32,000 nucleotides of DNA from Candidatus Electronema aureum. GTDB lineage: Bacteria; Desulfobacterota; Desulfobulbia; Desulfobulbales; Desulfobulbaceae. This document shows, in pieces, positions 749 to 32,000 of the stretch. The stretch lies in NCBI GenBank assembly GCA_004284765.1, contig NQJD01000010.1:30275-62274 (forward strand). Direction: 5' to 3'. The notes below the pieces were generated by a model. That model did not search any database. It saw only the letters and a list, made by a program, of their open reading frames with translations, and had not been told where the DNA came from. The first letter of the stretch is position 1; every line of letters begins with the position of its first letter. The translations under genes and the position numbers were made by a program.

Positions 749-2275
749 TTACTGCTGCCCCCGCAGCTTGGCGCGAACTGCCGCCAATGCCTCGCGCCAA
801 TCTTTCAGCTTCGGGTGTTCAAGTTGCTCCATCAACTCTACAGCCCGGCTGATGTATGGCTCGGCCTTGGCAAGCTCGCCTTGCTGGACGTACAGACTGC
901 CCATATTCCAGCTAATGCCAGCCTCTTCCGTTTTTGCGCCAATCTCCTGCGCTATGGCCAGAGCTTGTTCATACTGCTTCAGAGCGGCTGGGTAATCTCC
1001 TTTAGCCTTATAAATCGCAGAAATATTGTTCAGACTTCCTCCCTCGCCTCGTCGGTCGCCGATTTGCCGGGTGATCGCCAAGTCCTGCTCTGCATACTCC
1101 AAGGCGGCATCATAGTTTCCTTGCGCATGATACACTTGGCCGATGTTGTTCAACACCTTGCTTTCCGTAGCCTTATCCTTGATTTTGCGGGCTATAGCCA
1201 AAGCCTGCTTGTAGTAGTCCAAGGCTGCCGTATCGTCACCTTGCGCAAAGTGAATCGCGCCAATATTGGTTAAGGTGCTGCCTTCACCTTCCTTGTCATC
1301 TATCTCTCTCCGCAGCGGCAGGCTTTGTTCAAGATACTTCAGAGCCTGCGGATAATCGCCCTTGCTCCAATAAATTCCTGCGATATTGTTCAGTATCACG
1401 CCTTCAAATTCCTTGTCGCCGACTTCCAGGCATATAGGCAGGCTCTGCTCCAGATAGTCCAAGGCATTGTCGTACTCACCTTGGACATCGTAAATCTGGC
1501 TGATGTTATTCAGCATCTTGGCTTCACCCTTGCGGTCGCCGATTTCACGGTAGATGGACAGGCTTTGCTCATCTAAGCGCAGAGCCTCAGCATAGCGGGC
1601 AATATTGTCAAGGTCTTGTCCTGCCCAGCCAAGACAGTCCGCTCGTTCCCATTCATATCCTTCAGGCAAGGCAGCCGCAGCCTCTTGGAAATACTGGGCA
1701 GATTTCTCGTAGCGATATTGCAGCCGTTGCAGTCTGGCTTGGTCAATACAGCTTTCTGCTTCGGAGAGCTGCCGTTTCTCCAGCGCGGCCTGCTGTTCGG
1801 CCAGTCTTGCTTTCATCTTGCTAACAGCGGCCCGGTCGCGCTCCTTCGCCTGATTCAGCAGCTCATCCGCTCGGTCATATTCACCGTTCTCAATCGCTTG
1901 CCCGGCCTGCTCCTTCAAGGCTTTCACCTGCGGATCATCAGACGTGACCGACTCAAAGCGTTGCAGCAATTCCTTGTGCCGGAAGGCTATTTCCGGCAGC
2001 TTGGCACCCCATTCCTCGCGGGGAATGCTGCCTTGCTCCAGTATCTTGAAGAAGCTGGCAAAGGCTGCGTCGCCGATATCCAAGTCCTTCTTGATTTGCT
2101 CGTATCGCTCCAGCGGCACACCGTAGCTTATCGTCACCGTCTGCGCATTGACTGCCGGAGACTGATCGCCGGACGTGCTGATCACCGGGCCGTGGTTGTT
2201 CGTCTGGCTGCCAATGGCATGATCACCTTGCCCGATGCTCTGCGGGCCGCCTTTGCTCTTGAACAGATTGCTCAT
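749..2275 (-). CDS. Tetratricopeptide-repeat protein: Gly/Ser/Gln-rich N-terminus, a helical/coiled-coil middle, and about 7 TPR units of the kinesin-light-chain-like type
   Basis: The ORF is 749..2428(-). I place the start at the ATG at 2275 (MSNLFKSKGG...), which follows AGGAGGATGGAAA. The C-terminal half shows a 40-aa periodicity (LNNI..IY...G.Y..AL.Y.EQ.L.I.REIGD..GE). No catalytic motif was seen. Confidence 0.85.
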   Translation of the reverse strand: MSNLFKSKGGPQSIGQGDHAIGSQTNNHGPVISTSGDQSPAVNAQTVTISYGVPLERYEQIKKDLDIGDAAFASFFKILEQGSIPREEWGAKLPEIAFRHKELLQRFESVTSDDPQVKALKEQAGQAIENGEYDRADELLNQAKERDRAAVSKMKARLAEQQAALEKRQLSEAESCIDQARLQRLQYRYEKSAQYFQEAAAALPEGYEWERADCLGWAGQDLDNIARYAEALRLDEQSLSIYREIGDRKGEAKMLNNISQIYDVQGEYDNALDYLEQSLPICLEVGDKEFEGVILNNIAGIYWSKGDYPQALKYLEQSLPLRREIDDKEGEGSTLTNIGAIHFAQGDDTAALDYYKQALAIARKIKDKATESKVLNNIGQVYHAQGNYDAALEYAEQDLAITRQIGDRRGEGGSLNNISAIYKAKGDYPAALKQYEQALAIAQEIGAKTEEAGISWNMGSLYVQQGELAKAEPYISRAVELMEQLEHPKLKDWREALAAVRAKLRGQQ

Positions 2276-2330
2276 TTTCCATCCTCCTATCAAAGAAAAC
2301 GCCGAAGCGCGTGTGGAAAAATCTCCAACG
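2273..2330 (-). repeat. 58-bp leader module, copy B (covers the SD and ATG of the TPR gene)
   Basis: See copy A (47/58 identities). The distal 14-mer cgttcgagcggcgc is also shared, at 678-691 and 2448-2461. Confidence 0.8.
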
Positions 2331-2461
2331 CAGCTCAGAGAAAAACTCCATGCAAGCATGGACGAATTTTCGATGCTACGTTGGAGCCACCCTCCATGCT
2401 GGCATTGAGTTTTGCTCCATGCAAGCATGGACTTTTCCGGCCATGCTCGTTCGAGCGGCGC
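2324..2461. repeat. Array of six contiguous 23-bp units, each a 7-2-7 inverted repeat of type TCCATGC-NN-GCATGGA plus a 7-bp linker
   Basis: Units: 2324 tccaacgcagctcagagaaaaac; 2347 tccatgcaagcatggacgaattt; 2370 tcgatgctacgttggagccaccc; 2393 tccatgctggcattgagttttgc; 2416 tccatgcaagcatggacttttcc; 2439 ggccatgctcgttcgagcggcgc. The 18-mer ctccatgcaagcatggac is identical at 2346-2363 and 2415-2432. Confidence 0.8.
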
Positions 2462-2467
2462 AGCGCG

Positions 2468-2578
2468 TTATTTCGCTAACCACCCCGCGCCAATTCTCCG
2501 CAGCACATTGAACCCACCGCTGAGAACAAGGCTGTTCCGCTTGCCGATGTGCTCCAGAATATCGTGGTGCAGTTCCGC
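2468..2578 (-). pseudogene. Orphan 3' fragment (36 codons plus stop) of a rhodanese-domain gene, paralogous to the end of the 2949..4679 gene
   Basis: The minus strand reads AELHHDILEHIGKRNSLVLSGGFNVLRRIGAGWLAK*, compared with SYEVQVFLDHAGKRNSLVLSGGFNVLRRIGAGWLGK* at the end of the intact gene. An in-frame TAA lies immediately upstream (2579-2581). No start codon or upstream domain is present. Confidence 0.7.
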
Positions 2579-2657
2579 TTATAATATGCTATTGTTCCTG
2601 CTAGGCGGCGCGGGGAATGGCTCCAAAGCCGCATCCGTCACCAGTGGCGAGGTAGAT

Positions 2658-2861
2658 ATGAAAACTTTATGTATGAAAGTTGATGATAGCCTGTACAGCA
2701 TTCTGCTGGCAATGCTCAACGGACTGCCAAAGGACAAAATAACAATTTTGGAGACGGACAGTCAAGCTGCGTGCGCCAGTCTGATGCGCTACGCTGGAAG
2801 CATTGCCTGGCCTGTTGACGGCGTGGAGTATCAGCGGCAGCTCAGGGACGAGGAATGGTGA
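2658..2861 (+). CDS. Putative antitoxin (VapB-like partner of a PIN toxin), 67 aa
   Basis: The ATG at 2658 follows GAGGT. The product is MKTLCMKVDDSLYSILLAMLNGLPKDKITILETD...VDGVEYQRQLRDEEW. Its stop overlaps the next start (TGAGATG), as is typical of TA operons. The family could not be assigned by eye. Confidence 0.5.
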   Translation: MKTLCMKVDDSLYSILLAMLNGLPKDKITILETDSQAACASLMRYAGSIAWPVDGVEYQRQLRDEEW

Positions 2862-2862
2862 G

Positions 2863-2948
2863 ATGCTGATTTTAGACACGAACGCCGTCATCTATCTGCA
2901 AAAGGGGCTGCGGGCCGTCTCCAGCCCGCTTTGTTTTCTCCGCTTCCT
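2863..2948 (+). pseudogene. Truncated PIN-domain (VapC-like) toxin; only about 15-25 N-terminal codons are recognisable
   Basis: MLILDTNAVIYLQKG is a typical PIN N-terminus with the first acidic residue (D5). The frame then runs into the antisense of the neighbouring gene's 3' end (the 2949-3026 repeat) and loses any PIN-like sequence. Confidence 0.6.
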
Positions 2949-4679
2949 TTACTTCCCTAACCACCCCGCGCCAATTCTCCGCAGCACATTGAACCCACCA
3001 CTGAGGACAAGGCTGTTGCGCTTGCCCGCATGATCGAGGAACACTTGCACCTCGTAGGAGCGTGTGCCTGCGTCGCAGAGAATGATCAGCGTCTTGTCTG
3101 CTGGGATTTCCGCCAGCCGCGCCCGCACTTCCGGGTATGGCACTGACAGCCATTTCTCGTTGCCGAACTTCTCCACCAAGATTGCCGCATCTTTGGCATG
3201 GCGAATATCTAAGGCAAGCCAATCTGGTTCCCGATTGAAATCCTCCATCCACGCGAGGAAGCGGGCCACGCCCACCTTGCGCAGCAGGCCAGCGCAGATG
3301 TTGTCAGCCACAAACGCAGCTGCATTGAGCGAATCAATGGCTGAAGAGAAGGGCGGCGCATACGCCATCTCAGCCATGCTGAAGTCCTCAATCACCGCGC
3401 CCTTACTAATAAGGACAGCTGCCGCATCAATGCGAGCGGAGATCGAATCATTCATTGCGCCGAACGCCTGCAAACCCAATACCCGCCGCGTCCGTTTATC
3501 AAAGACCATTTGCAGGATAACTGCTGCGGTGTTCGGGAAGAAGTGGGCGCGGTCAGCAGGCGCAGTGAGTGAGTAGTCTGCGTCAAAGCCCTCTGCGACG
3601 GCGGTTTCATAGCTGATGCCAGTGGCCGCGATGCAGCGTTCAAAAGCCTTCATGATGAACGAGCCAACCACGCCGTCAAAGGTAGTGGCATACCCAGCCA
3701 TATTGTCCGCAGCCACCCGGCCTTCTCGATTGGCGAGCGAGCCAAGCGGGGCAAATGCCTGCTTGCCAGTGACAAGGTGGCGTGTGGCAATGCAGTCTCC
3801 GGCAGCGTAGATATCCGGGTCGCTGGTTTGCATCCTGCTGTTGACGACAATCCCGCCAAAGCCGGAGGCGATTGCCAGTCCTGCTTCTTTGGCTAATTCG
3901 TTGCGCGGACGCACGCCAGCAGCCATGATCACCAAATCCGCCTCTAAAGTACGCTGCGGGGTCTTGACCGCAATCGCCTTGCCCTCGCTGTTGCCAAGGA
4001 TTTCACTTGCTCCCTCGGACAGATATACCGCCACGTTCTTGTCGATCAAATGCTTCTTCAGCATAGCGGCAAACTCAGCATCAACAATGCGCGGCAGCAG
4101 CTGGGGCATGAACTCAATCAGCGCGGTCTCGATTCCCCACAGATCAGTGAAGGCTTCGGCCATCTCAATGCCAATCGCACCGCCACCGATAACCACCACC
4201 TTGCCCACCTTGCCGCCTGCGATACGCCGTTTGATCTCAATCGCCTTGTGCAAATCAGCAATGGTGAATACGCCGTCTAAGTCTGCGCCGGGTATCGGCA
4301 AAACAAAGGGCTTGGAGCCAGTTGCGAGCAGTAGCTTGTCGTAGTTCAGCTCGCTCTGCGCACCGGTTTGCAGGTTCTCGACCTTGAGCTTTTTGGCCTT
4401 GCGGTCAATCGATAAGGCTTTGGTGCGGGTGAGAACAGTCACGCCCTTGGCATTCTCGAAAAAGGCTTCGTCGCGTACCGCATGAAAGCTGGTGGAACGA
4501 AGAGCAGTCTCTTCCGCCACATCACCACTGACGTAGTAGGGAATGCCGCAGCCACCGTAGGAGATCAGAGAATCCTGATCCACGACCGTGATGTCCCAGC
4601 TCGGCTGGAGACGCTTGAGACGGCAGGCTGCTTTCGGGCCAGCGGCCACGCCGCCAACGATAACGATCTTCTTGCTCAT
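2949..4679 (-). CDS. Pyridine-nucleotide-disulfide oxidoreductase of the CoA-disulfide reductase/NADH oxidase family, with a C-terminal rhodanese domain (persulfide/polysulfide-reductase-like architecture)
   Basis: Motifs seen: KIVIVGGVAAG (FAD GxGxxG); the single redox Cys context SYGGCGIPYYV; a second dinucleotide fold VVVIGGGAIGIE; and the rhodanese active-site loop ILCDAGTRS near the C-terminus. An AAGGAGA SD precedes the ATG at 4679. Confidence 0.88.
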   Translation of the reverse strand: MSKKIVIVGGVAAGPKAACRLKRLQPSWDITVVDQDSLISYGGCGIPYYVSGDVAEETALRSTSFHAVRDEAFFENAKGVTVLTRTKALSIDRKAKKLKVENLQTGAQSELNYDKLLLATGSKPFVLPIPGADLDGVFTIADLHKAIEIKRRIAGGKVGKVVVIGGGAIGIEMAEAFTDLWGIETALIEFMPQLLPRIVDAEFAAMLKKHLIDKNVAVYLSEGASEILGNSEGKAIAVKTPQRTLEADLVIMAAGVRPRNELAKEAGLAIASGFGGIVVNSRMQTSDPDIYAAGDCIATRHLVTGKQAFAPLGSLANREGRVAADNMAGYATTFDGVVGSFIMKAFERCIAATGISYETAVAEGFDADYSLTAPADRAHFFPNTAAVILQMVFDKRTRRVLGLQAFGAMNDSISARIDAAAVLISKGAVIEDFSMAEMAYAPPFSSAIDSLNAAAFVADNICAGLLRKVGVARFLAWMEDFNREPDWLALDIRHAKDAAILVEKFGNEKWLSVPYPEVRARLAEIPADKTLIILCDAGTRSYEVQVFLDHAGKRNSLVLSGGFNVLRRIGAGWLGK

Positions 4680-4941
4680 TGTAGTTCTCCTTGTACAGTT
4701 TCAATCCACGCCCTCTTCGCGAGGGCGATTATACGTTGAACCGGACGCTACTCTTCGCACGGCCAATTCATCGAGTAATGTACTCGCAGTTCATCAGCAA
4801 TCGTACTTGCTGTTCGTCGTGTATATATAAGCTCTTAGAATAGAGCAACTTGCCACACTAATACATTTGCCGCGTCAGTGCCAGCATAAAAACCGCAAAA
4901 TACCAGCACAGGAAAGCGTCAGTTGAAAGATGATCCGTCAT

Positions 4942-31542: not shown

Positions 31543-31653
31543 ACCTCTTGCATAAGCCGCAACTTGAGTAGGGGGGCGAAAAATTTTTTGCCCCCCTACA
31601 TCACACATATGCTTGGTGCAGCCGCTGTGCGCAGGGGTTGTTATGCAAGAGGT
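31543..31653. repeat. 111-bp unit bounded by perfect 13-bp inverted repeats and containing a 32-nt near-perfect palindrome
   Basis: acctcttgcataa (31543-31555) is the reverse complement of ttatgcaagaggt (31641-31653). CAAC/GTTG extends the stem after a 4-nt bulge. The inner palindrome is gtaggggggcgaaaaa/ttttttgcccccctac (31568-31599). Confidence 0.7.
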
Positions 31654-31736
31654 TTATTTGGTCACGCCGATTTTGAACCCACGCACGATGGATCCGATGG
31701 TCTTTGATTGCCGTGCAGGGGCCGCCCTTGCTTGCT

Positions 31737-31874
31737 GTACTGTACATGAACCAAAAAGTTTCATGTACATGGATCGAAGCGTTCCATGTACATATACCCG
31801 ACTCGTCCATGTACTTAGGCGAGGTTCATCTATGTGCTTAGGTGAGACCCATCTATGTACATAGTTCTGATTCT
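31737..31874. repeat. Array of six contiguous 23-bp units with core TCCATGTACATGGA (iteron-like)
   Basis: Units: 31737 gtactgtacatgaaccaaaaagt; 31760 ttcatgtacatggatcgaagcgt; 31783 tccatgtacatatacccgactcg; 31806 tccatgtacttaggcgaggttca; 31829 tctatgtgcttaggtgagaccca; 31852 tctatgtacatagttctgattct. Units 4 and 5 are 17/23 identical. Confidence 0.8.
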
Positions 31875-32000
31875 ACCTAATGTGCAACTCTTTTAAACTT
31901 GATTAGGCAGCAATCAAGCCATCCAAGTCAAGTGGAGGGCGGTTATAGACCAAATTAAGGAAGACACAAACAGTGTGCGCCAAAATTTTACGAATCAGAC

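Follow-up and report, generated by a model that had tools for sequence, protein, structure and literature searches.

Six head-to-tail 23-bp units upstream of a TPR gene of Candidatus Electronema aureum (array A) belong to a real, conserved and lineage-restricted family of arrays, found in E. aureum and close relatives, which is apparently undescribed. They are palindromic repeats of the interspersed kind, unusual in that their geometry is fixed at 23 bp. The family was shown to recur at unrelated loci and to travel with the 5' region of TPR-family genes, its arrays gain and lose whole 23-bp units in the manner of minisatellites, and they are landing sites for IS and MITE insertions. Tentatively, we regard array A as a REP/BIME-like interspersed array that would act as a multi-site platform for a putative dimeric DNA-binding protein. 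Like the sequence-only reading, which had not recognised the element, we found no description of 23-bp palindrome arrays in the literature; the cable-bacterium genome paper catalogued only repeats longer than 250 bp (PMC10926707).

The window analysed in this work is the whole stretch of 32,000 nucleotides, within which array A has the following composition (unit sequences as on the plus strand):

2323 to 2460, no strand assigned: array A, six head-to-tail 23-bp units
2323, plus strand: unit 1, CTCCAACGCAGCTCAGAG-AAAAA
2346, plus strand: unit 2, CTCCATGCAAGCATGGAC-GAATT
2369, plus strand: unit 3, TTCGATGCTACGTTGGAG-CCACC
2392, plus strand: unit 4, CTCCATGCTGGCATTGAG-TTTTG
2415, plus strand: unit 5, CTCCATGCAAGCATGGAC-TTTTC
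2438, plus strand: unit 6, CGGCCATGCTCGTTCGAG-CGGCG

Each unit is an 18-bp palindrome of 8-2-8 layout (CTCCATGC-NN-GCATGGAG) followed by a 5-bp linker. The six contiguous units proposed from the sequence alone were confirmed, except that they start at 2323, one position away from where they had been placed, and that only five of the six are clear, unit 6 being a weak hybrid with a register off by 1 nt and a poor match to unit 5; the inverted repeat is likewise present, but 8-2-8 describes it better than the 7-2-7 originally suggested. The variant half-site CTCCAACG/CGTTSGAG occurs in the hybrid units 1, 3 and 6, and identities between neighbouring units along the array are 12, 12, 11, 18 and 5 of 23 positions. 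Over 2323-2460 the autocorrelation reaches 0.504 for lag 23 and 0.467 for lag 46; the maximum at any lag from 7 to 60 among 2000 dinucleotide shuffles was 0.474, so that none reached the lag-23 value. The two identical 18-mers that had been reported in units 2 and 5 (2346-2363 and 2415-2432) are real; since they lie 69 bp apart they are not the source of this peak, and the predicted 23-bp signal beyond them therefore holds. Among lags 7 to 60, strong local self-similarity occurs in the window at lag 23 alone, and Tandem Repeats Finder also called period 23 at array A. The pattern CTCCATGCNNGCATGGAG, with up to three mismatches, has four matches in the window where 0.34 are expected, three of them inside array A. 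The linkers are A-rich in the 5' half of the array and T-rich in the 3' half, a gradient which makes the whole of array A one long imperfect palindrome. Periodicity and palindromy are far beyond chance, and array A is, as first thought, neither coding nor CRISPR.

The surroundings of array A comprise a gene and three further elements:

749 to 2275, minus strand: TPR gene of 508 aa, with its ATG at 2275-2273 and the RBS GGAGGA at 2287-2282
2262 to 2322, minus strand: gene-proximal flank of array A, conserved with copy B (401-461), not repeat
2448 to 2476, no strand assigned: distal flank of array A, CGTTCGAGCGGCGCnGCGCGTTATTTCGC, overlapping the last half-site and also present in copy B and at locus L006
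401 to 700, no strand assigned: copy B, a paralogue of the element, past the 3' end of the TPR gene and upstream of folK

Within the gene-proximal flank are CCACACGCGC, a short hairpin (CGC-loop-GCG) accompanied by a T-run, and the RBS and ATG of the TPR gene together with roughly its first four codons. Weaker in-phase units had been suspected at about 2302 and at 2278; these positions fall in this non-repeat flank of about 60 bp, which recurs, conserved, in a second element copy at 401-469. The flank holds no repeat units, and the phased sites do not extend onto the ribosome-binding site. Nor does the array fill the whole upstream region, as had been supposed, for the intergenic space continues past it to 2657. 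In copy B the proximal flank (about 60 bp) agrees with that of array A at 38 of 38 specified positions of AAGAAAACGCCGnnGCGCGTGTGGnAAnAnCTCCAACG, and the distal flank CGTTCGAGCGGCGC is also common to both, but the interiors differ, the 23-bp units of copy B being of the CTCCAACGTATATAAGTC type. Since its proximal flank includes an RBS, an ATG and about four codons, copy B looks like the leftover upstream region of a lost tandem TPR paralogue. Ca. Electronema nielsenii carries an unbroken orthologue of copy B (L006), with five CTCCAACGTATATAAGTC-type 23-bp units in both orientations; in E. aureum copy B is split by a MITE-like element of about 130 bp (521-652) with inverted ends of about 35 bp (GCAGCATAAAGTGAACTTGAATGTCATTCCGAGCGGAGCGAGGAATC...), which is missing from L006. 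A role of the flank as the end of a high-copy mobile element was rejected, as 13 of 14 matches in a scan of the genome collection were chance matches in unrelated taxa and only the one in L006 was real.

The TPR protein is predicted to be disordered over residues 1-50, followed by a conserved helical segment and by TPR repeats over the remainder; the AlphaFold model (pLDDT 77) likewise has a disordered N-terminus and then helices. Pfam reports TPR families only, and the N-terminus has no Foldseek match against the PDB at E<0.001. As neither these searches nor the model give any sign of DNA binding, the TPR protein was discarded as the array binder. The only sigma-70-like match in 2200-2720, TTGCCA-18-TATCAT at 2712-2683 on the minus strand (10 of 12 positions), lies within a vapB-like ORF and is aimed at array A and the TPR gene; if this were the TPR promoter, which is possible, array A would lie in a 5' leader of about 400 nt. 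In the leader of a TPR paralogue at L020 (2857-2980) a hairpin-containing segment of about 46 bp (GCTGGGTTACTCAACCCAGGATGAATTCTACGCTCGATGAA) is tandemly duplicated. TPR-family genes are often broken: that of Ca. Electronema sp. VV (L018 3001-4458) is split into three ORFs, that of L020 (3001-4622) into two, and that of L023 (1543-2907) is truncated by an IS. Turnover of the TPR gene family appears to be fast.

Ca. Electronema sp. VV has the order CoADR, single unit, TPR gene, and its unit, CTCGAACG-AG-CGTTCCAG, begins 12 nt after the CoADR gene (L018). When the two genomes are aligned on the flanks, the six units of E. aureum against the one of VV amount to exactly 115 = 5x23 bp of extra sequence, and the outermost half-sites are alike (CTCGAACG ... 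CGTTSSAG). This difference by whole units between the same outer half-sites identifies the locus as a variable-number tandem repeat. The VV unit at L018 2937-2954 (CTCGAACGAGCGTTCCAG) also holds CGAAC-N4-GTTC, which looks similar to the Gram-positive-type LexA (Cheo) box.

Further loci were gathered through homologues of the TPR N-terminus and through a two-unit pattern scan of metagenomes, in which seven of seven matches proved to be multi-unit arrays. The consensus of array A and its 23-bp period recur in related contigs at loci of six further kinds, with three to eight units each, in a sample that is biased in that most loci were fetched through TPR homologues or the motif itself:

L023: seven to eight units CTCCATGC-YR-GCATGGAG + 5, upstream of a 55%-identical TPR paralogue
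L020: three units, then TGCTATAAT
L024: eight units, with a 2-hydroxyacid dehydrogenase gene on one side and a TPR gene on the other
L025, L026 and L030: six, six and seven units at orthologous loci, flanked by a ferritin-like gene and an unknown one
L028 and L029: seven units, between nifH and nifI1
L027: a variant array, unit CCTATGCAGGCATGGGG

No array was present upstream of the TPR homologues of L021 and L022. The occurrence of arrays at the ferritin-like, nif and other loci means that the family is confined neither to TPR genes nor to vapB nor to a single type of promoter. Orthologous arrays at L025, L026 and L030 vary by whole units, with obvious unit duplications. All of the arrays seen lie in an intergenic region containing the start of a downstream gene, and none among them is between convergent genes. 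Sigma-70-like promoters follow several arrays directly (for instance the promoter-like site TTGACR-N17-TAATAG after the arrays of L025, L026 and L030), at a distance which is not conserved, and no conserved neighbouring regulator gene was present at the array loci examined. No conserved termini or target-site duplications were found at the type-A arrays beyond loci homologous by descent, and the arrays were therefore rejected as MITEs. A sigma-54 enhancer was also rejected: GG-N10-GC follows the nif array of L028, whereas the equivalents in the window, L023 and L024 are without GG or GC.

The period is shared more widely than the unit sequence. All fetched DNA was scanned over lags 7-60 for a self-match of at least 60% in 46-bp windows; by far the commonest lags were 23 and 46, the latter a multiple of the former. 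About 100 kb of control DNA from fourteen unrelated loci yielded no lag-23 arrays, nor did 21.7-kb samples of the leuA region of E. halotolerans, two Electrothrix species and Desulfolithobacter, and the arrays thus appear lineage-restricted. Besides array A, at least three further 23-bp arrays are present in the window. In addition to copy B, the arrays with other unit sequences are:

4763 to 4831, no strand assigned: array C, three 23-bp TTCATCGAGTAATGTACTCGCAG-type units that are partial palindromes, between CoADR and a PatA-type response regulator gene
31735 to 31878, no strand assigned: array D, six units of 23 bp sharing the core TCCATG-TA-CATGGA, continuing outside the window across an IS (continuation at L033 8403-8510)
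L022 2426-2517: array E, GAGTCAGC-AT-GCTGACTC, directly after a TPR stop codon
L024 3006-3120: array F, CTTGGTGT-nn-ACACCAAG, downstream of a TPR gene
L028 5903-6063: array G, CGACCACT-CT-AGTGGTCG, between nifD and nifK

At least six types of unit sequence keep the 23-bp palindromic geometry. In every array, dyad centres recur at 11.5-bp intervals, two to a period, that of the unit falling between bases and that of the linker on a base. About 52 kb of E. aureum sequence contain five arrays, and L024 and L028 have two per contig. Array D originally had about ten units and is split by an IS4/IS5-type element (DDE_Tnp_1; L033 8511-9505); this IS has its own inverted ends (ACCTAATGTGCAACTCTT), is flanked by an apparent 8-bp duplication (AGAATCAG) and merely splits a longer array, so that array D was rejected as a set of IS-end repeats. 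Clusters of ATGCWWGCAT, some exactly 23 bp apart, were seen upstream of a P63C-like phage gene in the viral contigs L031 (about 4380-4450) and L032 (about 2330-2430); these are probably phage operators unrelated to the cable-bacterial arrays.

Constraint on the units was assessed with a PWM built from 48 type-A units of seven arrays. Positions 2, 3, 5, 7 and 8 and their mirrors carry 1.2-1.75 bits, positions 4 and 15 carry 0.3-0.7 bits, the central dinucleotide (TA preferred) 0.6-0.75 bits, and the linker close to nothing (about 0-0.1 bits), apart from a preference for W at the middle base with 0.72 bits. Of 384 mirrored pairs of positions, 268 are complementary, as compared with an expectation of 262.8 from shuffling the right halves between units (p = 0.22), in a covariation test of limited power since decayed units may be dead copies; in the alternative register, pairing a right half with the left half of the next unit over the 5-nt linker, the figures are 224 against 232. 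Non-Watson-Crick pairs in the 48 units showed no excess of G.T (15 G.T against 18 A.C). Hybrid non-palindromic units (CTCCATGC-TA-CGTTGGAG) recur and persist in several arrays, and the central dinucleotide is uniform inside arrays and different between them, a pattern that indicates concerted evolution. This pattern of conservation points to independent sequence-specific constraint on each half-site, as would be expected for a dimeric protein, and not to selection for base pairing.

The favoured reading, a platform for a dimeric protein, would work as follows. The half-sites (yTCcATGC) would be held by sequence-specific recognition, most likely by a putative dimeric DNA-binding protein, several dimers of which would sit side by side at a pitch of 23 bp, slightly more than two helical turns, loading in a manner akin to lambdoid operators or to REP/BIME elements that recruit host proteins. 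Array A, placed between the CoADR stop codon and the TPR gene, would probably be a protein-loaded boundary or an upstream element modulating TPR expression. Sites for a cooperative dimer had already been proposed by the sequence-only reading; the conserved half-sites and the free centre and linker fit that part of the proposal, and the PWM and shuffle test show the dyad sites with free spacer that are typical of transcription-factor operators, but a gene-specific operator or a plasmid-type centromere is unsupported, and an operator would not account for the lack of a fixed promoter distance and of a conserved regulator gene at the loci examined. Several observations count against the protein reading as well. 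With at least six unit types at the same geometry, it needs either several paralogous binders or a protein that reads structure; placement inside the nif operon is what REP-like RNA or selfish elements typically show, and an operator has no need of it; the variable distance between array and promoter counts against it; and the palindromy kept across unit types still needs explaining.

A possible but unlikely alternative is that the arrays work as REP-like hairpins in RNA or ssDNA, tandem or nested stem-loops which terminate, insulate or stabilise the 3' end of the upstream mRNA. The array A region folds on both strands, as RNA or as DNA, with z about -4.1 against shuffles, and many arrays begin 0-35 nt past an upstream stop codon between co-directional genes (nifH-nifI1, nifD-nifK). 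The linker gradient suits such an element, and palindromy that is kept while the unit sequence differs amounts to covariation between families. The strong folding of array A, however, follows from its being palindromic; a terminator-like score, with a T-run behind it, was obtained for one unit only, and no Rfam family matched the array. Within the family, complementarity stays at the PWM expectation in either register, so that the compensatory changes of an intrinsic terminator or structured RNA were not found, and there is no sense-strand G.U bias; the persistence of non-palindromic hybrids also argues against hairpins. Three arrays lie in divergent promoter regions without the 3' end of an upstream gene, strong termination at the nifD-nifK junction, or 48 bp ahead of the TPR start codon, would prevent expression, and the fixed period of 23 nt would be left without a reason.

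It is rather improbable, in our judgement, that the arrays are a selfish or neutral palindrome-prone minisatellite that spreads by slippage, template switching or gene conversion with no host function, its fixed period merely inherited from a common ancestral unit. The variation in unit number between orthologous loci and the homogenisation within arrays are what such an element would produce, as are the restriction to one lineage, the toleration of IS and MITE insertions and the frequent degradation of neighbouring TPR genes, and the E. aureum unit types share TCCATG, CTCCAACG, GTATATAAG and ATGTAC, which suggests one ancestor. Against this, the half-site core is kept across loci and organisms while centre and linker are free, which is not expected from drift and concerted evolution; palindromy in every diverged type needs selection or a regenerating mechanism; and no array was seen between convergent genes.

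The gene that had been nominated as the source of the binder, a divergent vapB-like ORF about 200 bp from array A, lies in a segment with its own history:

2468 to 2535, minus strand: remnant of a duplicated CoADR 3' end, GFNVLRRIGAGWLAK and stop, with its partner at 2949-3015
2536 to 2948, plus strand: inserted module with the vapB-like ORF (2586 or 2658 to 2861) and a 56-aa ORF (2863-3033)

The CoADR gene ends at 2949, and a direct duplication of its 3' end (67 bp, about 94% identical) brackets a segment of about 410 bp with both ORFs. The 67-bp bracket resembles an unusually long target duplication or the att-like repeat of a small insertion. The duplicate at 2468-2535 implies that array A originally lay 12 nt past the CoADR stop codon, as in VV, and to judge from this arrangement the vapB-like module is a later insertion which was not ancestrally linked to the array. 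The 56-aa ORF occupies the position of a toxin gene, as a vapBC pair would have it, but neither ORF has a match in Pfam or NCBIfam. A locus-specific operator or centromere-like array bound cooperatively by the VapB-like antitoxin or another local regulator is thus very improbable: palindromes at about two helical turns beside a small divergent gene do recall antitoxin operators and plasmid centromeres, but the protein would need to bind CTCCATGCnnGCATGGAG specifically, its ORF belongs to no known family, sits inside the bracketed insertion and has its own TATAAT (2581-2586) across the gap of about 200 bp, the sister genome has no vapB between CoADR and the TPR gene, the arrays at six other locus types are without such a gene and are not co-inherited with an antitoxin gene, and the presence of the family inside the nif operon and of sister arrays in many other intergenic regions gives it the distribution of an interspersed repeat rather than that of a gene-specific operator or plasmid-type centromere.

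Of the known systems, REP/BIME elements (including the SMAG of Stenotrophomonas) are similar in that short palindromic units lie in intergenic and intra-operon DNA, form clustered arrays of variable copy number, are targets of IS insertion and are able to recruit host proteins or act as RNA hairpins. According to PMC3733652, their hallmark is a conserved tetranucleotide, GTAG or CGTC, that marks one side of the palindrome, and, as portrayed there and in PMC2817692, REP, BIME and SMAG are tagged, longer imperfect stem-loops. The 48-unit PWM of the 23-bp arrays contains no GTAG or CGTC tag, and no IS200/RAYT-like gene was found in the 52 kb examined. Array units are 18 bp with a 2-bp centre, in contrast to the 20-40-nt imperfect stem-loops of REPs; SMAG periods are locus-specific (50-103 bp) while the cable-bacterial arrays have a fixed 23 bp everywhere, and the sequence of the cable-bacterial unit, unlike that of REP/BIME, changes from array to array. 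GTAG-tagged REP-like hairpins, GTAGGGGCGAA-N-TTCGCCCCTAC (GTAGGGGCGAA...TTCGCCCC), form a separate repeat family often adjoining the 23-bp arrays:

31568 to 31599 of the window: GTAG-tagged REP-like hairpins
L028, about 3170-3240 and 3440-3470: the same
L024: the same
L006, about 960-1000: the same

Lambdoid operators and plasmid centromeres or iterons (sopC, parC, RK2) consist of 17-18-bp palindromes with short AT-rich linkers at about 22-24 bp from centre to centre, and are single-locus systems with a cognate gene. The arrays share with them this layout, multiple sites that would suit cooperative dimers and the combination of conserved half-sites with a free centre, but occur at dozens of chromosomal loci with three to ten sites each, have several unrelated site sequences, lie also inside operons, and have no cognate repressor, Par or Rep gene nearby; their context is chromosomal housekeeping (folK, cobST, leuA, trpA, nif) and not that of a plasmid. 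Mycobacterial MIRUs are also dispersed intergenic or intercistronic tandem arrays of a characteristic unit length that vary between strains by whole units, but they are 46-101 bp long, non-palindromic and oriented with transcription, with small ORFs for translational coupling. CRISPR arrays have short, partly palindromic repeats at a strict period, whereas the arrays described here have only 5-bp linkers and no unique spacers, their repeats are non-identical and diverging, and they are without leader or cas genes. The sole Rfam CRISPR match of the region, a sub-threshold match to CRISPR-DR9, is a hairpin at 4698-4751 beside array C.

More speculatively, and in our estimation doubtful, the arrays may represent a new prokaryotic repeat class, in which the 23-bp 8-2-8+5 geometry would be imposed by a diversified dimeric DNA-binding or processing protein acting as a 'ruler', each unit type being read, and perhaps amplified, by its own paralogue, and in which the role of the arrays would be to organise the transcription units or the chromosome of the filamentous polyploid cable bacterium. 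A repeat whose period is conserved while its sequence is not would differ from the known REP, BIME and MIRU families. For annotation, phased palindromes of this kind should not be taken as locus-specific operators of the neighbouring gene. Cable bacteria have so far no pure culture, and very little is known of how they regulate their genes or how their genomes change; a repeat family in a noticeable share of intergenic regions would offer a handle on an unknown DNA-binding activity, and the arrays would supply VNTR markers for strain typing.
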